Part shown: one piece after another, positions 1,377-19,980 of the stretch | Numbering within the stretch: position 1 is the first letter of the stretch | How the letters are laid out: every line of letters begins with the position of its first letter | Source: Atractiella rhizophila | Taxonomy: Eukaryota | Assembly (NCBI GenBank): GCA_021432655.1 | Contig: MU271355.1 | Coordinates: 62,001-84,195 of the forward strand | Direction of reading: 5' to 3' | Length of the DNA stretch: 22,195 bases | The notes under the pieces: model-generated | Told to the model about the DNA's origin: nothing | Databases searched by the model: none | What the model saw: only the letters and a program-made list of their open reading frames with translations | Translations under genes and position numbers: made by a program

Positions 1377-4148
1377 TCGTTGCAGGCAGCTCCTTTGCAC
1401 GAGAATCATGATGAATATTGCTTCAGTTTACAGATGTATATACTTCAGAACTGGTTATTATAGAAAGCTCAAGAAAGATTGAGATAGGGAGCAAACTGAA
1501 AAGCAAAGCTGGTTGGATGTTTAAGGGACCTTTGTGAACTTGTCGGGAAGAGGTTGGAGAGCCGTGGGAGGACAGTTTGAGAGTGTGCGGCGAGCCTTTC
1601 GACTGGTTCAAATTGGAGTGGTGGTTGTTGAGGAAGCGTTGACGAGCCGCTCTCCCGCCTTCCACGCTTTCCAGAGATTGGAGTGTCACTGTATCTTTAC
1701 TTTCAAAACGACATTCTGATGATTCTACACCTGTATTTAATGTGCAATGTCATGCAAATGGCAATATTGAGCGTCCACACACCGTCCTCCCTCTCCTCCC
1801 CTTCCATCCTCCGCTGTCGTTCAGATTCCCTTCCGTTGACCTCGCGATTCAATCCATCCTTCTGATCGTCGCTCCTTTTTCTGTTCGCCGACACTGACCT
1901 TCCATCCTCGTTCAGCTCCTTTCCCTTCGCCTCCCGTTCAGCATTGCTGCCAATTTTCGTCCTCCACTCGTCCTCGCTCTCCTCCCCCGTTCGCCTCTCC
2001 GTTCGCAATTCGTTCGCCTTCCGCTTCTAGTACTAATCAAGTACTAATCGAGTCAATAGTATTCAAGTTGAGATCGAGTCCGATCCAGCTGGTGTCGAAT
2101 CGAACCCATACCATAAGCACTCTCTCTTCTCTCGTAAAAGCCGATAACCAAGTCGAAACATGAAAAATTGTCGAAAAAATACTTCGAAAATAACTTAACC
2201 CCAAAAGTGAGAATCCGGTGACTTCGAGTAAAAACACGTTTAAAATCGAAAATGCGTCTGTGGACTGACTGCCCGACATCGCTGCTGTAATAGCCGTAGT
2301 TTCGCACGAGTTGCATCAACAATAGTTGGGGAATACTTCGGTTTGGTGTTTCGGGGTTGTCTGTCTTCAATTCCGGGATCGGAAAATCAAAAAAAAGTCG
2401 AATTTTGATTTAGAGAAATGAAAATCTTTAGTGCCCTTTTAAAGACTTATTGCTCTGAACCCAGGCCTCTAGACACCTCTTAAGTGACCACGGAGCAAGT
2501 GAGCAATCAGCAAATTCCCTGGCGCTATAGCGTCTATCCTAGGAACACCGTATAGACCGTTCCTAGCAGCTCCTAGCAGCCCTATGGACCTTTGGGACCC
2601 TATGGCAAACTTCTAAAACCGACCTTCCACAAACTTTAACACCACCCATGACTCTAGAGTGACTCACCGCATTTCCCTATTATTGCCTAAGGGGTCAAAG
2701 CGGATTAGGGGCTCTTCGCTCGTCCAAATTTTTTTTACAAGTTCATCCAGTGTAAATCTCAATCACCTCATTCTCAAGGTCTGCCTGCATTCTGCCTGCA
2801 CAGATTTCCTCAAACTGTCTCCTCTCTCCCTTCCTACAAGCCTTCTCCCCGCCTCCAACCCTCCCAGACATGATGTCTCCAAGCTACTGGCCACGTCACC
2901 CACCTATCTCGTGCTCTGACCCGGTGTCTCAATGGCAACAAAGACAGGAGTCTCGAATCTGAAGGGAGCTGGATTATGTAGAGTGATAAGAGCGGTGATA
3001 TTACTGAGAAGGGTAAGTGGTTGATTTCTTCGGCATACCGTCATGGGTGGGATTTGTGATGCTCTCAATCAATCCTGCACTGATACTTCATTTAGCTCAC
3101 ATCTCCTGCCCATCCTCCCCATTACGGCACCTCAATTATCTGCAGTATTCTTGTTGCACAACTACCCTATCGCAGCTTACGACCTCGCCAGTTCCTCACT
3201 TGGATTCATAGTATTGTTCTGTCTCACTTCATGAGGTGAAGGACTGGTCGGCTTTCACTTGTCTATTTTGAGTTGAATGTGCACAGGTCAGGAAGGACTC
3301 CAGGAAATCAACAGATGGTCATTGAGCGAATTTAACTGTTCAAGCGGCTGTCATGGAGTTGGGTATGCTCATCATACTATTGGTGGTCCTAATGTGAGTT
3401 CTATCTACATCCCTCTTAACTCACATTTACCTCTAAGCGATGACGTTCTCTTAGGCATTAAAGTGGTCATTTGTAGGCTCGTTAGCAGTGATTGGATGTG
3501 ATAAGACAGAGCAGACAAGTGATCCGGTTCCTGCAGCACATGATAGTGTATGCTATAGTAGTTTTGCTGATTAATATAGTGGGGTTTATTGCATTATATA
3601 TATGTCACAAAGCATGGGAAGGCAGCCTACAAACGAAATGAGACAGCAAACAAGGTGACTCACCCATAGCGTGATAGCCCCATAGCGCGATAGCAGCACT
3701 CCTAGCTGTCTAGAATAGAGCCCAGGTGACAAAAACCCTATGAGCTCCTATGAGCTATCATAGCGCCTATAGCTCCATAGACGACCATCCGAAAAGTGCT
3801 GATGAGGAAGGTTTTATTAACGACACAACCAGGAACAACACAATAGGCGGCTAACCCTGAAAGCTCACAGTGTAACCACGACCTTTTCTTTTACCCCCTC
3901 AACGGAGTAGAAACCTCGATTTTGCTCACGTAGGACCTGAACCATTACTCTAACCCTTATGCTGTTTCGGCTCTTTGATTGACTACAATATGTCCACGTG
4001 ACAATAGATTCTAATGGGATAACTGCCCACAGCGCGAGCTTTCACCGTTCTCCAAAAGATCGAAGTGAGAACTCGCCTAACCCTGCAAGTAGCAGAAATA
4101 GTGCAATCTCAATCGGCGTCCTTGTAGTCGCGTGTGAAATGCCCTTTC

Positions 4149-4216
4149 CTCGTACGAAAAGTATGCTGTCTTGCACGAAAGTTTATTTCTCTTGGAAAGG
4201 TTATTTCTCTCATACG
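4149..4216 (+). repeat. Degenerate tandem array of ~21-bp CTCGTACGAAAGGTTATTTCT units (3-4 copies)
   Basis: ctcgtacgaaaagtatgctgt / cttgcacgaaagtttatttct / cttggaaaggttatttct / ctcatacg. Confidence 0.7.
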
Positions 4217-4515
4217 TCCAAGCACGCTGATCCAGTGCTGGTATCGCTCTGACTGGGAGTGCGTTCGAAGGTGTGAGTCGAGGTCTATATGAAATTCGAA
4301 CTCATTTTGTCTATTTGCCAACGCTCTGGGCACTCAGGTGTTCAAACTGCTCCGCGGTTGTGTTTGGTTTCTAGGCTGACGCGTTGAGGTTTGGCTTGCG
4401 AGGGTTCTGCGAGCCAACGAGAGCTTGTGAGCTTTGAAAGCACCCCAAACGAGGTGGTAAGCAAGAAGAAAGGCTCACCCCAAAAGCAGTTCCGAAGTCC
4501 TAACAGGAGGAGAAA

Positions 4516-5979
4516 CTAGCCGTTTCGTCCTGATGCTGTACCGACCACCACACCGCGACGAGGAGCGGCTTTGGCAACTGGTTTGCCTCTTTTCGGTTGA
4601 CTGAACTCATGTTCATGGATGTCTGAGTGTTGGCGGTTATTCGTGGCCTCAAAGCCGCGGTGGGTTATCTCGTTTACCACGACCTGCGCCTTCATTCTGA
4701 TGTAGAGTTCCCAGGAGATTGATTTCCATCTGCCCGCCATCATTATGAATTCTATACCTACCTTGAGAGCCCACAGTCTGCTTGCGCCGCCAATTCTGAA
4801 GCTATGGCCCGACACGTTGTCAATGCCTCGTGATACTTCCGTGTCCTGAGACCATATGTTCTTGCATCTATCCAGGAAGGCTCTTTTCGTGAGCGGGAGA
4901 ATGGTGTGTTCCTTTTGCGACCAGTAGGCGAACAATGGGTCTGAGTCGCTAAGCACGCAGTTGATGCGGAGGTGGTTGAGAATCGCTTCGAGCGAGAGTG
5001 TGTTCCCTATTCTCGCTTGCGGGATGCTGATGTCAACTGGTGTCCCTTTGGACACTTTGTCTTTTGGCAGGCGGAGGCGGATGTAAGGGAGACCTTCTAA
5101 GTCGAATTCTGGGAAAATTTTGTCCCGCGTCATGTGCGTTTTGGGTGAGAACGATGGTTTCGATTTCGGTAAGAGTTCGCCGAGTCTGCAGAGCCCGTAC
5201 AGCCCTGTGACGACGGCAGCCCAGACGCAAGCGTCAAAAGGTTTGAGAGGTCCAGATTCCATTCCAGGGACACCATCATCTCTTGGGAGACAGGTGCTCG
5301 CGGTCTAACAGGAACGTGAGTCTGTGACTTTGGGTTGGAGTTGCTTACTCTTTTTTGTGCGATTGACCCATGATATTGCTTATTCCTCGCAACCATTTCG
5401 TTAACACTACGGGCTTATCCTTCTCCCAGGGCCATGGGGCACCGTGCAGATCATGCCATGATCTGAGTAGTTCTCGAGGGTTTGGGTCCCAATGGTTGTG
5501 AGGGGGCGGAACGCCTGAGGGTAGATATCCGGAGGGCCCGTTGCCCAGAGGCAGAAGGATACGAGGTGTTGTTGGGATTTGATGGGAAATCTGTCCTCGA
5601 AGGGTATGCAAAACTTGTTGCAGAAATAGTTCCATTTGGCCAGTGCCGAGCCGTAAGAGTTCCAGGTGGATTCGGTGAGGGAGGTCTCGTTTGCAGCGTA
5701 CGCTATGGCTCTGAATACGGGCACGTCGAGTAGGAGATGGGAGAAGTTGTCGACGCCGCGCCATAAGCGTAGTCGATCTCCAGCTCGGCAGGGGATGAAC
5801 CTATCCTCCAACTCTTGGTTGAATGAAGCATTCTGTCTAGCGAAGGTCTCGTAGGCTGTGAGGTCACTGTCTAGTTCTTCTCGCGTTCCCCATGGTGGAG
5901 GATTAGGCCTTTTTGCTCTCCTAGGGCCACGTTCCTTGGGTTTGCGTTTAGAGATGCTTGCCTTCCGTTTATTGTTCAT
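4516..5979 (-). CDS. Tyrosine recombinase (YR), ~470 aa, with one 44-nt intron (5305-5348) and two frameshifts (~5467, ~5241)
   Basis: Catalytic motifs CRLGEL (R), LPKDK (K), SGHSFRIGGA (HxxR), GRWKS…LYIR (W/Y). N-terminal STWNSYGSALAKWNYFC…TLENY/LRSWHDLHGAPW. Start context is ACCACCATG at 5979. Confidence 0.9.
5305..5348 (-). other. Spliceosomal intron D in YR (44 nt, phase 2)
   Basis: GTAAGC…ACTCAC…CCTGTTAG; removal gives …HKK GA|A PRAPVS…, a YR-typical segment. Confidence 0.8.
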
Positions 5980-6110
5980 GGTGGTTTCAAGATGGGTTTC
6001 ACTTGCACGTGCCTATTTGCTTTCCTCGCTCTTGGAGGTCTCAGTCTACACTTGTGAATTGAATGATTGAATGTTGATGCTATGTCTGATAGATACATTT
6101 AATGTGATTG

Positions 6111-7900
6111 CTATGCTAAAGTACTAGGTACTGGAAGGGAAGAAGGATTAGAGTGGCTTATAATGAACTTGGATACTGGTTGTGGAACCGGTATGGAGAC
6201 GAAAAGTTGGTATTTGAGATGAGAAAAGGAGCCTCTTGAGGGTCGGTCCGCTGGGTTCTCTTCGGAAGGGATCCATGTGGGTAATACGGTAACATCGAGT
6301 CGTTGTGTAACTTCGCTCAATCTCTTGAGTGACTGGTTTTGTTCGTGGTTCCTTGCTCGCCACTTACGGAGGATTCCTTCGACTCCCTGGTTGTCCGTGT
6401 TGACTATGACGGCTCGATGGTCCTTCTTGAGAGTGATTCTGTTCCTGCTCAGGAGCCATTCGAGTAGGAGTACCCCTAGTTCTACGGCTAGCATTTCACC
6501 CCAGCCTATCTTCCTTTCCTCTCTGGTGGTTTCTGCCCAAGTCCAAACGCTCCAGTGTTCGTGGATCTGGACCGCTATGCCGTACGCCAGGGAGGCGTCT
6601 CCGAACCAGGTTAATGAGACTGGTTTGTCGAGTCTGGTGACTTTGCGGATGGGTGGTCCCTTCGTTAGTTGTTCGTGCCAGTAGAGAAGATCTTTCCGGA
6701 CTCCTTTGGGGAGATGTAGTGTACCGCGCTCGAGGAGCCAGGGATTGTCTTCCCCTAAGGCGTGCGGGAACGAGGCGATGAAGTTTATGAGATTCGTGAG
6801 ATATGGCTTGCACTGGAACATGGCGAAGGCGACGTGTTGGAGGTAGCCGTGGAGGTGGGTGGCTTCCGCTAAGGTCGCTCTAAAGTTCGGTTGGAGCCAC
6901 GTTTGGACCGTGAGGAGTGTTCTGATGAATTTTTCTCTCGGGAGTGAAATGGTGTGTTCGCGGAAGTCCCAAACGAAGCCGATGAACTTGACGAGATGAG
7001 AGAACTTCGCACATTTCTTGAGGTGCCATGGTATCCTTAGGCCGTCGAGGTCGCTGAAGAAGTCTTCCTCTGTTCCCCAGACCTTGAGTGATTTCGACCA
7101 GATTACTTCGTGGTCGTCTACCCACTTCCAGATCTTCTTCCACCTCTTTTTCCTGGCTATGGCTACCCAAGCGTCGTCTACACTACCGAATACGCCTGGT
7201 AGGGATGAGGTTCCGAACGATCCTACCACGTTGATCCAGAAGTTGCCGTTGTAGTCCTGTATGACGAAGGCCCGCCTTGACTCTTCATCGAGAGGGATGG
7301 TTTTGAAGGCTTCCGCTATGTCGATAGTCATTGCTTCGGCGTCTTTCGGGAGCTGTGCAAAGTCGAGGAGCGCCTGTGAGAAGGCAGTCCATTCTGTGGG
7401 AAAGTCGTCAGAGTCGATGAGGTCGTTTACCGAGGGCCAGTCTTCTCCAGACTCGTCTAGACCCCCTTTTGAGGCGTTCTCTATGAGCCTAAATTCGTCC
7501 ATGGTACCGGCCTTTGGGACGGCATTGAGCGGGTTCGACCTCCAGCCCTTGCCCCCAAATATTTCGGAGACTTCCTCCCGGTTGTAGGGTCCAAAGTTCC
7601 TCTTCTTGGCGTTCTCCTCCTGGATGTAGCCGTGGATGAAACGCTTCCTGGCGTCGTCGACTGGGGTGTTGGGTGGGGTGAATGTAGTTTGGGTAGTGTC
7701 GCAATGCCGACGTTGAAGCCATTTCGGATGCCGTGCACGACGTGTTGGAATTCGTTTAGGAGATTATACTTCTTTAGTTGCTTGCGGAAATTAGATGCGC
7801 TGTAGGGGGTAATGATCGTTCGTGCTGGGTCGTTGGGGTTCGTGATGTTGATTCTCGGTTGAGGGACTTCGATCCTCTCATCTGGAGGATCGGGGAGCAT
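6111..7900 (-). CDS. pol: Reverse transcriptase-RNase H (pol) of the YR retrotransposon, ~596 aa, with one 1-nt-deletion frameshift near 7695
   Basis: RT motifs IDIAEAFKTIP, SFGTSSLPGVF, KWVDD, FIGFVWD. RNase H motifs FGDAS, GEMLAV, NTDNQGV, ENPADRPSRG. The N-terminus (ITPYS…GFNVGI) is in the 7481..8050 frame and shifts to TQTTFTPPN…EENAKKRNFGPY…AVPKAGTMDEFRLI, which is continuous with ORF 6111..7502. The ATG at 7900 overlaps the gag 3' end. Confidence 0.9.
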
Positions 7901-10900
7901 GCTGACGAGCTCTGCAGTCCTTGCTGCCGTGCAGGGAGCATACGTGCTTGTCTCTAGGGCAGGCTGTTCCGTCTGCCAGCAGGTTCTTGCATCCGTCTTC
8001 TCGCAGGTTAAAGATTGCGCAAATCTGTTCACCGCTTGAAGCGACGACAAGTGCCTTGGGTCTCTGATGCCTTCCTGAGAGTCTGGAGGGGAGCATTTAA
8101 GTGAGCGCCGTGCAGTTGAAGCTGTGACCTACCGCTTGGAGCCTCCGACGACTGTTCCTTCCTCTTCGCACCTGTTCCAACCGTGGTTGGATGGGGCTCT
8201 GCCACACCTGGCGCAGAAGTCGTGTTTGGAGGGTCGACCTCCTTCTCTAGGTTTCGATGGTAGGTCGTTGTCTGGTCGCTTACTGGCGTTTCTGAGTTTG
8301 GAGGAATCTGATGGTCCCGCGTGGTACGAGCCTGGGTGGAGGTGGTTTCCGGGATTACTCCCCCTTCTCCCTGCCTGCTTCATAAGGTCCTCGAACACTC
8401 TAAGCCTAGCATCCAAGGAGTCTCCTTGCCATAATCGAAACTGCTCGGTCACCTGGGTGTAGATAGTGTCGAGGTATTCCCAGGCGCCAAAGTCGGACGT
8501 CGCCTCGTGCCTGGTTTCGTGGTCCCTTCGGGCCTTCTCCTGGGTTGCCATGATGAGATTCCAGTTATTGTAGTCGGAGGCTCCGTTTAGAGCGTACTTT
8601 CTCTTGCACCAATCCTTCATGGATTGGAGTGCTCCGGCGATGTTCATCAGGAATGTTCTGTCTTCCCATTCTTGCACGACTTTGATGTACCAGTCCATGC
8701 CTTTCTCAAAGTCGGGATATGACGGCCTGTCGTCTCTCGCTCTGGCCCGTTCGATGATCTTGCGAGTTTTGTCGTCGGACAAGATGAGTCGGTCTCCTGA
8801 GTCGAACTTGATTTCTTTCGACTCGTCCAGCCCGTACTCTGCAGAGAGTTGTTTCCACGCCGTTGGTAGGTGGGCAGGGATGTAGGCGTGCGGATTCTCG
8901 TGTATTTTCTTTTTGAGCTCTGGAACGTCGAAATCGACTTGGATGGTGGGGACGGAATTCTTATTGATGACGGAGTACTTCCAGTCTTTCTGAGATTTCG
9001 CCTCCTTGATTAGTCTCTTCTGCCGAGAACGCTCTGACTCTGTTGATGAGTCCGAGTTAGAGGAGGGATCTGATGCATCTGGTCCGCGGCTGGTGTGCCG
9101 TATGTTCTTTCTCCTCTTCTTCCGTCGTCTTTTTCTCCCTTCCGCTTCATCCCCGCTAGAGTGGGAATCAGGAGCGCGATGCTTTCTCCTTGCTGCGGGC
9201 TTTCCCTTCAACGCCGTTGCTTCTGGCTGGTCTATAATTTTTCTCGTTCTTCCGCAGTCGCCCACAGGGTGTCCTTGCTGCTCCTGTGGCTGGGCAGTCG
9301 CGCTGGCTGAAGGGGGGTCATGTGGCTGCGTCTGTCGTCCCTTCGCCGGATGGGGTGTTTCTGGACCTATGCCGGGGGGGTTGGCTTGTGCGAAGTTCTG
9401 GTAGGCGTGGAGAAATTGGGCCCGGGTTGGGGGGGTATTGCCGGGATTTGCGAAAGGTGGGATGGTGCCCGCTGCTTGCACAAAGCTTGCGGGGAATCCT
9501 CTGATGGGGGCATGCGGCGACAGCAAGGGCTGTAGGGGCTGCGTGGGTAATGCTGTGTCTCCCCACCCACCCCCAGGCAGTTGGTGTCCCGGGTTTTGGT
9601 GATTTGGTGGGTTGACGGGGGTGGGGTTCTGGTGGCTTCCCTGGTCAGCGTTGGCTCCTGGTACCTGGGGTCTGAGCCGATTTACTGCGGTCCCTTCTCG
9701 GGGGAGCCAGTTAGACTTAATGGTGGTTGGGAGGGGGCCGCCCCAGTTATGTGGGGTTCTAGTTGATGGTGGTGGAGCGCTGTCGTGGAACCTTCCGCCA
9801 GGGAGAGGATTCGCCGTCGCTTGTGCAGCAGAGTTTGGGGGGAAGCTGAGGAATTCTCCCCCAGTGTGGGGGTTTGCGATTGGGTATACGGCACTGCAAC
9901 CCTCGCGCCTTAGTACGGGCACTCCCACCACGTGGAGCTGCTCACGATGTTGTAAGGATGTTGAGAGATCCCTCCCTAATATAAGGGTTCCCGACAGGTT
10001 GTACGGTACTACAACCGTCACACCTTAGTAGAGGCACTCCCACCACGTGGAGCTGCTTACTGGACAAAGGCGTCGTTGCGAAGACCCCCCCCAGTGTGGA
10101 GGCCCGCCGACCCGCCCTGCGGTCTCGCCACGGAGAATGGCCTGTATCTGAGTCCGGCATTGGAGAGGTGATGGGAGGGTAGGGTTGGCTCCTCTTCCCT
10201 CCCCTTCCCCTTCTGAATCCTCCGGTAGTTCTTGTCGAATGAGATGCGCAGGACTTGGATCTGTTGCGCAGATAAGTTGCGCTCCTCGATGCGACGGTTG
10301 AATTCTTCCGGTTCGGTTGCTTCGAGGACGTATTGGATTGCTTCTACTGCATTCTGCTGTTCCTCTTCCAGTTCCTCCTCCCTCTCTTCTTCCCGTCTTG
10401 CATCTTCCATCGCTTCCCTCTTTACTTCCAGGCCCAGTTCTTCTGGTGTATGCCAGGTGTAGAATACTGGCATACCCAATTCCGTCCATCCTACTTGAGC
10501 CGTTTCCGCCGCTGGTGGTCTAAAGTTAACTCTTTCGTGGGGTCTCTGGCGCCAACGGGAGCTGCTGTAGAACAGGCAGTCGGTGGTGTCCTGCCAGGCC
10601 ATGACGTTGGCGAGAAGGACCCATTCACCAGCGAATTTGTTGTAGGCATAGATTCGAGTGAATTCACGGAGGGGGAGGCCTGATCTGAGGACGTAGCACC
10701 ACATGTCAATGGCTCGCGATATGAGTTGGGTGCGGAACTTCGAGGTGCGTGGCGTGCCGGTTCTGCGAGCCACAAAGGTTAGGATATGTTCTGCTTGCTC
10801 CTCGATGTGGAGTGGGGAATAAACGTTGTCCCCAAACTTGGAAGCGTCCGAAGGGTCAGAGAGAACGTCTACAAACTTGTAAGGCAGAGATGGAAGTACG

Positions 10901-11223
10901 GCGTCTGCGAAGTCTTTCTGATTCAGACTGGAGAAAGGTTTCCAAAGTTTGTCGAAGGTATCAAAGAAATGCGTCGTTTTGGCCTCGTTCACGTCCACGC
11001 CGTCCCTTTCTGCCACCTCTATGAGACCCTTGTGGCAAGGGTCCATGAGAGACCCGGGTTCAGCAGAATACGGAACGTTGGCCAAGACTGAAAGTTCGTA
11101 GAGAAAAAGAGAGTGTGGATTGGAAGTCTCCGGAACGAAGAAAGAGAGACCCAAATTCATCTCTAGCAAGGTGTTGCGACTCATCTGACCACCTTCTGCT
11201 GCCATTTCCTTCAAGAAGGTCAT
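7878..11223 (-). CDS. gag: ORF1 / Gag-like protein of the YR retrotransposon, spliced: join(11223..10061, 10008..9946, 9893..8133, 8082..7878), ~1063 aa; start may lie further upstream
   Basis: Four ORF-track pieces (10057..11289, part of 9942..10160, 8129..10021, 7878..8096) join in frame on removing three GT-AG introns (52, 52, 50 nt). Product has an unknown N-terminal region, E/R coiled coil, KGKGRE, Pro/Gln-rich repeats, basic RKRRRKKRRK, CARC-x6-H-x4-C knuckle, and a C-terminal ICAIFN…GC…C…HVCSLHG Zn finger. Confidence 0.8.
8083..8132 (-). other. Spliceosomal intron C of ORF1 (50 nt, phase 2)
   Basis: GTAGGT…GCTCAC…CCCCTCCAG; removal gives CG|A and joins the CCHC knuckle to the ATG-poor C-terminal Zn-finger exon. 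Confidence 0.85.
9894..9945 (-). other. Spliceosomal intron B of ORF1 (52 nt, phase 2), twin of intron A
   Basis: GTGAGC…TACTAAG…GTTGCAG; 45/52 identical to intron A; removal gives TC|T in frame. Confidence 0.85.
10009..10060 (-). other. Spliceosomal intron A of ORF1 (52 nt, phase 2)
   Basis: GTAAGC…TACTAAG…GTTGTAG; removal gives CA|T and restores the frame. Confidence 0.85.
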
Positions 11224-11326
11224 GTGTTGGCTTTGGTGGGTGTGGCTGCAGTTAGAGAACGTGTTCTCGGGTTGGGGAGTTGGTGACAAAGAGCGGATGC
11301 GGTCGAAGAGAGTTGAAAGGAGAGCT

Positions 11327-11393
11327 CTGAGAGAGCTTGGGAGAGCGGTTGGTTAATGAGTGTTGGTGATCACGGCGCGACTCAGTGACTTAC
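11327..11393 (-). other. Candidate 5' intron of ORF1 (67 nt; alternative acceptor at 11336)
   Basis: Perfect GTAAGT donor, ATTAAC branch-like site, pyrimidine tract and CAG. The downstream frame is open into ORF1 (ALLSTLFDRIRSLSP), but the ATG at 11403 is out of phase by one base. Confidence 0.55.
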
Positions 11394-11442
11394 TCAAGTG
11401 CATTGGACTAGGACCAGAATTTTGGTTTCTGGGCTTTTAAAT

Positions 11443-11508
11443 GTTTATTTCTCTCGTACGAAAGGTTATTTCCCTCGTACGAAAGGTTATTTCTCGTACG
11501 AAGGGTTT
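11443..11508 (+). repeat. Tandem array of ~21-bp CTCGTACGAAAGGTTATTT units (3 copies)
   Basis: ctcgtacgaaaggttatttcc / ctcgtacgaaaggttattt / ctcgtacgaagggttt. Confidence 0.9.
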
Positions 11509-14289: not shown

Positions 14290-15168
14290 AGTTGGACAAT
14301 GCGTTGATGCGCTGCAGGCATGACCTGACCTTTCCCCTCACTTGTCTCGTTTAACATGAATTCGTGGGCTTCAGTCCCGCGCATCTTCTCAGGGAAATGA
14401 GGGCGGAGGAAACATTGATTTCACGGAAGGATGATCAGGGGACAGTCTCAATCGTACGGGTTCATCTCATCACCCCAGTAACATTACGACAAGGCATTCC
14501 GATCCACCTCTCCATTCTTCCCTCTTTCCTTTCTCGTTTACCACCACACACTCCGGATCACATTTATCTTGCCTCTTGAATTCTGAAGCGAGGGTAATGG
14601 GCCATCGAAATCGACTTATTTCTCTCTGGAAGGTCTCGAAAATGCAGTCGGAGGCGACGACACAATGAACCTTTCCATTTCCATGACTTTGGGGGAGGAA
14701 AGTATTATGGTAGCCTTTGGGGATTCCAAACATCATGCATCCGTGGATTTGGACGACCTGGACGTGAAGCCCTTCACTTGTTCGTGTTCCAGATAATCGC
14801 TCTGAGGTCATCTTCTACCCCATCGCCCAATACTCCAAGAAGGAACAATGTTTCATTCTTATCAGTGAACGGGGATCAACCATCCCATCCACCGGTCTAG
14901 GGACCACCATCCAACTCGAGATCTAGATATTAGTTCGTGCCCTATCGCAAGGCTACACAACGATATCCTCTCTCTCATCGTCGAGGTCCTATCATTCCGT
15001 AAATACGAAAACATCATCGAAGGTCGTAATGGATACCTCGTTTCCTTCCAGCGACTTTCTGCCGTCTGTCAGCTCTGGAAGGCTGTTTCAGTCCCATGTT
15101 TGGATGAAGATATTTCTATGAAGGAGAGGCATGCTCGCTTGAAAGTGTACCTAATGTTGGACGTTTCT
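14290..15168 (+). pseudogene. Decayed, 3'-truncated F-box protein gene, paralogue of the gene at 17017-19452
   Basis: Shared blocks across several frames: HLSILPSFLSRL vs YLSILPSFLSRL; YFSLEGLENAV vs CFSLECLENAI; CPIARLHNDILSLI…VCQLWKAVSVPCL vs CSISRLPIELLSRI…VCQLWKSVGAPYL. It has stops and frameshifts and ends at the copia junction. Confidence 0.8.
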
Positions 15169-15171
15169 CCT

Positions 15172-16636
15172 CTGCAGATCCTCCGAACGATTTGACGGGC
15201 GCAGGAACCCCATACATCGGTGTGGATCAGTTCGAGCTTTTCCTTTGCGCGTTCGGCGGGGCCGGAGGGGAATGGGAGTTTGCGTTGTTGACCAAGTAGG
15301 CATCCGGTGCACGGTGAGTGGTGATCCTCATCTCCCATCTCTAGTCCCCTGACCATTCCCTTTTCTTGCAACAGCTTGAGGCTCCCGCTCCCGATGTGAC
15401 CTAAACGACAGTGCCAGACATGCGAAGAGGCGGGCTTTGCGGCGCTCGTGAGTTTTGAGCTTGCGCTTTCGTTCATGATTACTGAGGCATCCAATCTTCG
15501 CAGTCCGCTTTCAGCAACGATTTCAGCGACCACAGTACCATCACCCTTCACCACCTTCCCTTGCCTGTCTGCGGAGAATACAACATCGAAACCGCGCGTG
15601 TTCACCTTGTCGGTGGAGAGGAGGGCGCAGTCGATTTCGGGGTCATAGAGAGTGTCAGTTATCTCAATTTCTCTTTCTACTCCTTTGACCTTTGTTAACA
15701 CTTTGACAGTGCCGATGCCAATTGCTTGTGTGACGATGCCGTGGGACAAGCGGATGCAACGTGAGTGGGGCTTGAGTGAGAAGCATTGATGTGGTCCGTG
15801 GCAGCGGAATTGACATAGATCCCCTCACGGTGTATCCTTTCCCCCATAACCGTGTGGAAGGCTTCTGATATTCTAGCTTCTCCAGGTTTCTCTCCTGCTT
15901 CTCTCTTCTTCTCGTGGCAGTCCCATTCCCAATGTCCTTCAATGGCACAATAATGGCATTTCCCATGCTTCTTCTCGCTTTTCAGTTTTCCTCCGCTACT
16001 CCCTCCTTTTGATTTGGTTATGTTGAGGATGTGAAGTCGGAGGTGGCAACGGTGTTGAAGGAGGAGACGACCTTGATCCAGGACTGTGGGAGTGAGATAA
16101 GTAGGAGCATAGGGATATCATCAGGTCAGTTTGGTCTCCCATCGCTTTCAACTCCTGTCCCATGGTTCTGATTCGGTTTACATGCTCCCGCATAGATTCT
16201 CCTTCGACATAACGCTGTGTAAAGCTTCTGGCGGAGCAGTACACACGCTTGTCGGTCCTGGGTCTAGTAGAGCTCCTTAAGCTTGTCCCAGACCTCTTTC
16301 AGTTTCTCAACTCCGATGTCCCGAATGTCAGTAAGTATATGGTCTTTGCAGGCTTCGATGATGATGGAGTAGGCTAGGTATGCTCGCTTCATCCAATCCC
16401 TTTGTGACGCTTCGATTGTGTTGACCCTCATGACGTTCTTTGGTTTCGCTGCCTCCGCTTCCTCGAGACTCCCTGGCTTGGGATCCGTTCCTGCAACGAT
16501 CCCCCAGCAGTTCCTTCCGAGGAGCTTAGCCTGGACTCTAAAGGACTCTAAAGCACCAGGTACGGTAATTCCCCCGTCCTTCGAGTTTCGCGATAGTCGA
16601 TGCAGCAATGAGCGATGTGTCATTACCTTCAGACAT
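15172..16636 (-). pseudogene. copia gag-pol polyprotein remnant with multiple frameshifts
   Basis: ATG at 16636 (MSEGNDTSLIAASTIAKLEG). Pieces lie in ORFs 16264..16647, 15996..16244 and 15069..15749. A 10-nt duplication at 16534-16553 shifts the frame. Confidence 0.85.
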
Positions 16637-16699
16637 CCTGGGCTCATGTCGATGCAGCAATGAGTGATGTGTCATTACCTTCAGACATCCTGGGCTCAT
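16596..16699. repeat. 52-bp tandem duplication covering the copia PBS remnant and gag start
   Basis: 16596-16647 and 16648-16699 are identical except for one C/T. Confidence 0.95.
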
Positions 16700-19640: not shown

Positions 19641-19980
19641 TTCGTGCGAAAGGTTATTTTCTCGTACGAAAGGTTGTGGTCGCTCGCACGGAGGGTAATC
19701 CCTCTGGTCCGGCTTCTAGTGCGAAAAGGATGGTTGTGAATGAAACAGTCATCTCACGAAACGATCATATTCAATAATTCAGGAGATTACCCTTTCATAC
19801 GTACCGAAGGCAAGGTCCTGCACAGTACGCCTCACTGACTCAGCGATGATGACTGCAGGAGACGTTTCCGAGATCAGCATATCCAGCGCTCAGAACACTC
19901 GATTTTAGCGCAGTAGAATTGTTTGCTCAACGGCAGGGTCATCCCTCAGAAAGGAGGTGAATAACCTTTCGGGCACGAAA
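19641..19980. repeat. Same 21-bp repeat: two direct copies at 19641-19675, further degenerate copies, and an inverted copy at ~19959-19980
   Basis: ttcgtgcgaaaggttatttt ctcgtacgaaaggtt … gaataacctttcgggcacgaaa (reverse complement tttcgtgcccgaaaggttattc). Confidence 0.7.

Follow-up and report, generated by a model that had tools for sequence, protein, structure and literature searches.

An Ngaro-like retrotransposon of Atractiella rhizophila with spliceosomal introns in gag and in the tyrosine recombinase gene

Introduction

Introns are normally lost when mRNA is reverse-transcribed, and retrotransposons that bear introns are therefore rare; the known cases are Penelope-like elements, Ogre and a few others. 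Here we describe an intron-bearing element in a 22,195-nt stretch of DNA from Atractiella rhizophila (assembly GCA_021432655.1, contig MU271355.1, positions 62,001–84,195 of the forward strand), called the window below; all positions are those of the window. The minus strand from about 11439 to 4217 holds one retroelement of about 7.2 kb, which encodes Gag, reverse transcriptase/RNase H (RT/RH) and a tyrosine recombinase (YR).

Ngaro elements, a group of YR retrotransposons, are reported to be frequent in the Pucciniomycotina basidiomycetes, the group to which the host belongs (PMC13465315). According to a term search, the word 'intron' is absent from a survey of fungal DIRS and Ngaro elements (PMC3783388). 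Our literature search found no description of a YR retrotransposon with introns; the founding Ngaro papers lie outside that search, so no claim of priority is made. Introns have been reported in other retroelements. Penelope-like elements are described as keeping functional introns through retrotransposition, with most of the RNA spliced and a minority unspliced, and their intron was proposed to help expression (PMC2377424). The long terminal repeat (LTR) retrotransposons Ogre, EVADE, copia and BARE, together with Cer1 of C. elegans, are reported to apportion their products by splicing, and separate RNA pools for translation and copying are reported as shown for BARE (PMC3735527, PMC12786077).

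The element in the window is an intron-bearing YR retrotransposon with splicing-dependent Gag and recombinase, and this feature is real and uncommon. The particle-building and the DNA-inserting proteins are made solely after splicing, yet diverged copies appear to bear the introns.

Results and discussion

Five introns and their joints

Contigs of four public runs (X1–X4) were aligned to the element. The X4 contigs skip exactly five stretches, whose ends read CT..AC on the plus strand and thus GT..AG on the minus strand, on which all features below are given. These are intron A at 10009–10060 (52 nt, GTAAGC...TTGTAG, with a CTAAG branch-like motif; joint 10008/10061), intron B at 9894–9945 (52 nt, GTGAGC...TTGCAG; joint 9893/9946), intron C at 8083–8132 (50 nt, GTAGGT...CTCCAG; joint 8082/8133), intron D at 5305–5348 (44 nt, GTAAGC...TGTTAG; joint 5304/5349) and intron E at 4407–4478 (72 nt, GTGAGC...CGCAG). 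The X1 contigs skip 8083–8132 and 4407–4478 with joints at the same places; the organism of X1 is coded differently from that of X4. Introns A–D are of phase 2 relative to the ORF upstream of each, and intron E lies in the 3' untranslated region, 37 nt past the YR stop. All five have GT..AG ends, lengths of 44–72 nt and, as read by eye, a CTAAG or CTCAC branch-like motif 13–21 nt before the 3' end.

The donor junctions of introns A–D read tgtcCA/GTAAGC (10060), acaTC/GTGAGC (9945), aagCG/GTAGGT (8132) and aaaGA/GTAAGC (5348). In-frame stops follow at once within the introns, at 10059–10057, 9944–9942, 8131–8129 and 5347–5345, and none of the four lengths is a multiple of 3. The four junctions are as the initial annotation had given them, with GT..AG ends, phase 2 and TAA, TGA or TAG directly after the G. 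The same annotation had proposed a further donor at 11393, in the 5' leader (11224–11438). The sequence GAGTAAGT is present in the leader (11395–11388, 165 nt before the ATG of gag at 11223), but no joint in the contigs starts there, and the sole X4 contig that spans it is without 4 nt at 11394. A simple GT..AG enumerator finds introns B, C and D together with many false pairs (22 rows), and it was kept out of the statistics. The folding z-scores are −0.41 to +0.35 for introns A–D and −2.3 for intron E.

Neither X4 nor X1 is recorded as an RNA library; the type of X4 is unrecorded and that of X1 is guessed. X4 is read here as RNA, because the spliced form dominates, the depth at intron D is that of the spliced contig alone, and the window's own variants are missing. 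At intron D, the bin 5096–5344 has a depth of 62.6, which corresponds to 74.6 × 209/249. On this reading of X4, introns A–E are real, spliced stretches. Spliced X4 contigs that diverge from the window by 1.6–5% have identical junctions. Retained and spliced forms are both visible in the contigs only for intron E: in X4 the retained positions 4433 and 4441 have a depth of 51.9 against a joint depth of 187.7, and both positions are covered in X1 too.

The gene models of A. rhizophila are the nearest named proteins, with a gag fragment at 99% and two YR paralogues at 94% and 88%. The paralogue model P0027 reads ...GQSHKKE/PRAPV... across the junction of intron D with its frame intact, although its protein would look alike from a copy without intron D. 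In P0026, a gene model with 99% identity to the window, intron B is spliced out too. P0026 (window 9894–10343, minus strand) has a wrong-frame start, reads through intron A and closes near 8600 with a predicted intron that changes the frame. The model is a mis-framed fragment, an annotation artefact of an intron-bearing transposon.

The skipped forms in X4 and X1 could also be DNA, that is, intron-less processed copies reverse-transcribed from spliced RNA, which would then be a template, the intron-bearing copies being an older minority. The unrecorded type of X4 and the guessed type of X1 would allow this, the X4 depth at intron D matches the spliced contig alone, and an intron-less copy would give the same P0027 protein. 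However, insertions at 5239 and 5466 are found in 74.6/74.6 and 66.7/66.7 of the X4 depth, so X4 is not simply DNA of the assembled strain. Furthermore, in P0026 intron B is modelled as an intron of the assembly itself, and five precise GT..AG removals that outweigh the intron-bearing form resemble a transcriptome. We regard processed DNA copies as an improbable source of the joints.

Gag and recombinase require splicing

The gag gene has four exons. Exon 1 (10061–11223; ATG 11223–11221) holds 387 full codons and 2 bases and belongs to no recognisable family. Exon 2 (9946–10008) is 63 nt. Exon 3 (8133–9893) encodes P/Q-rich, basic and helical regions together with the first Cys/His knuckle, CARCGRAPSNHGWNRC, and exon 4 (7878–8082) encodes the second Cys/His cluster and ends with the stop TGA at 7880–7878. 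With introns A, B and C removed and the exons joined by script, gag is 3192 nt long and gives 1063 aa with no internal stop. In unspliced RNA, Gag ends at residue 388, and it has 409 aa when intron B alone is kept. If intron C alone is kept, a 996-aa Gag ending in ...GGSKR results and the last Cys/His cluster is gone, in agreement with the earlier suggestion of a Gag lacking its second zinc finger.

YR exon 1 (5349–5979) starts with the ATG at 5979, and exon 2 (4516–5304) ends with the stop TAG at 4518–4516. The catalytic residues R, K, HxxR, W and Y are all encoded downstream of intron D. Thus, full Gag and the catalytic part of YR can be obtained from spliced RNA only. Removal of intron D is not sufficient to restore YR in this copy, since two deletions private to it (10 nt and 1 nt) also break the YR frame.

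An ESM Atlas search with gag exon 1 gave a best score of 0.83 and no lead. AlphaFold prediction of Gag residues ~700–996 without an alignment gave a mean pLDDT (predicted local distance difference test) of 44.9 and no usable fold. An alternative acceptor, CATCAG at 8064, would form with the donor of intron C a 69-nt phase-2 intron (8132–8064). It would put gag in frame with the N-terminal frame of pol (193 open codons), giving a Gag-Pol fusion by splicing; no contig of the four runs supports this acceptor.

Gene content and family assignment

The open reading frame (ORF) map gives the gene order gag, RT/RH, YR, all on one strand. Pfam is nearly blind to the element, and homology was therefore taken from protein searches. 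The Pfam signal is weak (RVT_1 at just 13 bits), and Pfam gave no match with the YR pieces and no family with the gag pieces. The RT/RH frame has 25 homologues in Agaricomycetes with 29–36% identity (best E 9.8e-69), some of them fused to 'DNA breaking-rejoining enzyme' proteins of Agaricomycetes. The C-terminal YR frame has 252 homologues (E 2e-30, 33–41% identity in Agaricomycetes). The RT motifs DIAEAF (D148) and WVDD (VDD 215–217) and the acidic residues of RNase H are invariant alignment columns. In YR, R40, K83, H167-x-x-R170, W193 and Y201 are invariant in 13 aligned sequences.

No methyltransferase was found by Pfam in the element, and the gap of 131 nt between the pol stop at 6111 and the YR ATG at 5979 leaves no space for one between RNase H and YR. 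Because of the order gag, RT/RH, YR and the absence of a methyltransferase, which separates Ngaro from DIRS and PAT, the element is Ngaro-like as judged by gene content. The nearest matches behind this call are unnamed or 'hypothetical' Agaricomycete proteins.

The gag–pol junction and defects of this copy

The N-terminal part of pol (7691–7900) starts with the ATG at 7900, 20 nt upstream of the gag stop. It is in the +1 frame relative to gag and overlaps the gag stop (AGA TGA G). This arrangement is found in the window and in 10 of the 10 relatives inspected (L001, L006, L013, L015, L019, L021, L027, L035, L039 and L047). Translation of unspliced RNA ends at 10057, and 2.1 kb with 15 ATGs lie between this point and the start of pol. 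Since pol is in the +1 frame and overlaps the gag stop, its translation looks coupled to complete translation of gag. If pol is reached after complete gag, we infer that RT, too, needs spliced RNA. The reading frames thus make it unlikely that unspliced RNA yields RT. The earlier proposal for unspliced RNA, namely neither full Gag nor catalytic YR but RT/RH, stands in its first part and is not supported in its second, pol being a +1 frame that overlaps the gag stop and, in this copy, frameshifted.

The RT/RH body (6111–7690) ends with the stop TAG at 6113–6111, and no splice joint was seen in it. A frame break lies at 7681–7700, where the window has 4 nt fewer than an X2 contig and homologues change frame. 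Pol residues 1 to ~70 are in the ORF frame 7481–8128, and the RT body is in the ORF frame 6111–7763. Homologues align to frame −1 down to ~7652–7703 and to frame −3 from ~7700, with the crossover at ~7700–7690. Behind 7681, the X2 contig (99% identity to the window) contains 4 additional bases, which result in one frame (...GIATLPKLHTFTPPN...). The dominant X4 and X1 contigs share the shorter form, the insertion being found in 0/117.6 and 0/2.5 of the depth. Hence the view that pol (7900–6111) could be assembled with no intron is wrong for this copy, which has two frames and a 4-nt indel. By eye, no canonical −1 slippery site is found at the frame break, and a 4-nt deletion is the better reading.

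The two private YR deletions lie at 5466/5467 (10 nt, exon 1) and at ~5239 (1 nt, exon 2). Relative to the window copy, X4 contigs are longer by 10 bases behind 5466 and by 1 base behind 5239, and one X3 contig end has the 10 bases as well. The paralogue P0028 reads ENYISSLRSWHDL across the 5466 site, and P0027 reads LSNPFD across the 5239 site. Judging from the 4-nt pol indel near 7685 and the two private YR deletions, the window copy is defective: it is dead for YR and, as it stands, for pol.

Duplication of introns A and B

Introns A and B lie within a 115-nt tandem duplication of an intron-plus-exon unit; gag exon 2 and intron A together form one copy. They are not independent of each other, as had been cautioned. 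The duplicated unit begins precisely with base 1 of the intron: the two copies agree at 2/15 positions in the 15 nt upstream and at 27/28 in the first 28 nt of the introns. The adjoining duplicated exon matches at 39/63 positions (62% identity). With the exon divergence as a yardstick, the probability of at most one mismatch in 28 is about 3e-5 by our own arithmetic. A 25-nt block, AGCAGCTCCACGTGGTGGGAGTGCC, is identical in the two introns (10033–10057 and 9918–9942) and contains the palindrome CCACGTGG; no further copy of it was found in the window. The first 14 nt of intron D (5348–5335) agree with intron A at 12 positions (GTAAGCARCTCCA). A hairpin behind the conserved block is unsupported, with folding z-scores of −0.1 and −0.4. 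The block could be a splicing or template signal, or could result from gene conversion.

A further reading of the block is that the introns mark the replicative RNA. The block would then be a signal present solely on unspliced RNA, and the immediate stops would keep ribosomes off the template. Such a signal could slow splicing or serve packaging or dimerisation. The separation of mRNA and genome by splicing would then run in the reverse sense to that of retroviruses, and it would be the first splicing-based separation of this kind in a tyrosine-recombinase retrotransposon. We consider this reading rather unlikely.

Phase-2 stops

The stops in introns A–D had been interpreted as a 'stop-switch'. 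The stops do lie 1 nt into these introns; the notion of a special device did not hold. A stop after the G arises because phase 2 is combined with a GTAA, GTGA or GTAG donor, and it holds no information beyond the phase. Since the lengths are not multiples of 3, retention of introns A–D would truncate the protein in any phase. The same is known in yeast. According to a study of Yarrowia, an in-frame stop invariably results when a phase-2 intron begins with GTGAGT or GTAAGT, as in 209 of 1,083 introns, and 90–94% of introns contain an in-frame stop (PMC2911113). Short introns are generally built to truncate intron-retaining RNA according to Jaillon et al. (2008), as cited in the same study. The immediate intron stop is a routine by-product, with no special switch.

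Because introns A and B represent one event, there are three independent coding introns. By our own arithmetic, the probability that all three are in phase 2 is ~0.01, and that all are in any single phase ~0.13, with phase frequencies (40.2/38/21.8%) borrowed from yeast rather than taken from the host (PMC2911113). The probability that none of the three lies in pol, which is 28% of the coding length, is ~0.37. The phase pattern and the intron-free pol are thus statistically weak, and the statement that only RT/RH is intron-free has no statistical weight.

In the regulated switch envisaged by the initial annotation, the stops bar Gag and YR from genomic RNA, which still yields RT/RH, and spliced RNAs give Gag and the recombinase. 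This agrees with the immediate phase-2 stops in all four coding introns, with the lack of a joint in pol and with the two forms of intron E. In addition, the 5' halves of introns A and B are conserved far past the donor, in comparison with the exon, and could be a signal on unspliced RNA. However, the position of the stops is set by the phase and the donor consensus, and intron-free pol is expected by chance. Pol as a second cistron, +1 to gag and overlapping its stop, lies far beyond the end of translation on unspliced RNA, and it is frameshifted both in the window and in the dominant X4 and X1 contigs. A retained form of introns A–D is not demonstrated in the contigs. A regulated switch is unlikely.

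Distant relatives

An RT/RH alignment scan of metagenome contigs gave 52 loci with ~25–34% identity. At least one of them, L001, is DNA, as shown by the phase-1 intron that remains in a neighbouring Zn2Cys6 gene. At the site of intron D, 31 loci have both YR halves: 19 are continuous and stop-free at the expected spacing, eight are in frame with stops and four change frame. As most relatives are continuous across this site, intron D is special to the family of the window. The gag of the relatives is ~300 aa and ends in a CCHC knuckle; alignment to the gag of the window gave 0 matches. In comparison, the window Gag is extended by its first ~690 residues, the part in which introns A and B lie. 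An intron considered in the gag of L013 and L039 (ORF ending GCG/TAAGTA) was dropped, as no in-frame join to the next ORF was found.

The first ~70 residues of pol are offset by +1 from the RT body in 23/34 distant relatives and are in frame in 9/34. An in-frame TTT CGA is found at the +1 junction in 17/23 of the offset relatives, in the conserved context A TTT CGA RAA YCA (L013:2190, L015:7964, L022:2000, L001:4927 and 13 others). It looks like a +1 ribosomal frameshift site, at which the Phe tRNA would slip from UUU to UUC before the slow CGA codon. In L002, L005, L022 and L024 (also L006 and L035), the frame of the pol N-terminus is open for 888–898 codons, past the whole RT/RH and into YR. 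This long frame resembles the overlapping ORFs of DIRS-1 and could be a route to YR translation.

Ends of the element and possible spread as DNA

An array of about three copies of a 21-nt unit (TTATTTCTCTCGTACGAAAGG on the plus strand) lies at 11439–11507, at the element's 5' end or just beyond it, and a degenerate 21-nt repeat array lies at 4145–4216, directly past the 3' end at 4217. Besides these arrays, no longer 5'/3' repeat of the element was found. Contigs of X1 and X3 cease matching at 11439 and 11452 on the 5' side, and they depart from the window at 4217 with flanks that differ between the two. In one X1 contig, an 11-nt copy of the 3' terminus (GCGTGCTTGGA) is directly joined to the 5' terminus (ATTTAAAAGCC), which would fit a circle junction, tandem copies or a split repeat alike. 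A solo two-unit copy of the bracketing repeat is found at 19642–19675, ~190 nt upstream of an F-box-like ORF pair (19452–18859 and 18858–17017); possible origins are an excision scar and an empty target site. An X4 contig with a depth of 89.7 joins the leader at 11287 to 4407, skipping 6879 nt without GT..AG ends, and this join ends one base from the acceptor of intron E. Either a repeat junction or a short derivative with an internal deletion could account for it. The surroundings are transposon-rich, with a fragment of a copia-type LTR retrotransposon at 15069–16671 (minus strand; Pfam gag_pre-integrs, Pol_BBD and Retrotran_gag_2).

Intron content was reportedly used by Goodwin et al. in 2003 as a mark of DNA transposition in the YR-encoding Cryptons. 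The element could have spread at the DNA level, by circle excision and reintegration through the recombinase or by segmental duplication, and no unspliced template would be needed. The encoded recombinase, the direct 21-nt arrays that bracket the element, the solo repeat copy and the terminus-to-terminus join in X1 are in line with this. The circle junction is equally expected from a cDNA route, however, and excision with reintegration alone adds no copies. The catalytic motifs of RT/RH on invariant columns point to selection on reverse transcription. We think it quite unlikely that spread as DNA explains the introns.

Proposed explanation

The explanation that we consider probable is that the window holds a defective copy of a multi-copy Ngaro-like element with five conventional spliceosomal introns. 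These are spliced by the host, the stops are a by-product, pol is translated after gag, and an unspliced minority of the RNA is the template. The five short introns of the family would comprise three in gag, two of them via the tandem duplication, one in YR upstream of the catalytic domain and one in the 3' untranslated region. The host spliceosome would take them out, and the fully spliced RNA alone would give the 1063-aa Gag and an active recombinase. After completing gag, ribosomes would most likely reach pol via a frameshift or reinitiation. A stop in a retained intron would be at most a generic safeguard against translation of intron-retaining RNA. Spliced RNA would act as mRNA, and the unspliced minority would be copied.

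Diverged copies share the introns, and thus the family seems to have spread with them. Under the accepted route from RNA to cDNA to circle, the template would then be the unspliced transcript; logically, introns that are kept despite an RNA intermediate require that unspliced RNA is copied. Replication from unspliced RNA is thus a reasonable part of the earlier model. Coupling of pol to gag, as suggested by the overlapping frames, would be part of the same scheme.

Several points weigh against this explanation. The library type of X4 is unrecorded, and if X4 is DNA, the joints represent intron-less genomic copies. The contigs give no splicing efficiency, and rare retained forms of introns A–D are invisible to them. 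The dominant X4 and X1 contigs have the 4-nt pol defect, so expressed copies may be largely dead. Three of three independent introns in the rarest phase (P ~0.01) are not fully covered by a 'generic' safeguard. The match of 27/28 in introns A and B against 39/63 in the exon hints at an intron function beyond removal. Finally, the split direct repeats (A1 ... B1 A2 B2) that define Ngaro termini were not found in this copy, which may be truncated.

If the introns persist through an RNA intermediate, the transcripts must be sorted into spliced messengers and an unspliced template that escapes splicing and nonsense-mediated decay. The choice of template RNA by a retroelement then becomes directly testable in a culturable fungus. 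The element is also a warning for annotation: searches that are ORF-based or intron-less miss or truncate such elements, and P0026 is an example.

Comparison with known systems

The element resembles the fungal Ngaro-type elements (Muszewska et al., 2013; PMC3783388) in the order gag, RT/RNase H, YR, in the lack of a methyltransferase and in the R..K..HxxR..W..Y residues of YR. It differs in the size of Gag (1063 aa against ~300 aa in the relatives inspected), in the five spliceosomal introns and in the split direct repeats, none of which were found.

As in Penelope-like elements, copies retain spliceable introns. According to the description of those elements (PMC2377424), they differ in having an RT with a GIY-YIG endonuclease and target-primed copying, and their intron is located in the 5' leader or promoter and not in essential ORFs.

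The phase-2 stops are like those of yeast host introns, where GTGAGT or GTAAGT in phase 2 gives a stop at once, and where stops and lengths that are not multiples of 3 are reported to make retained-intron RNA untranslatable and a target of nonsense-mediated decay (PMC2911113). That is a genome-wide property of host genes, whereas here it is found in a mobile element that may need its retained-intron RNA to persist for copying.

With Ogre, EVADE, copia, BARE and Cer1, as these are described (PMC3735527, PMC12786077), the element shares a difference in coding capacity between spliced and unspliced RNA, and replication must avoid the spliced RNA. In those elements, Gag or Gag-Pol is reported to come from unspliced RNA, whereas a subset product is made by splicing, which joins ORFs in the case of Ogre. 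In the element of the window, in contrast, unspliced RNA encodes neither full Gag nor YR, and the introns are several, small and constitutive-looking.

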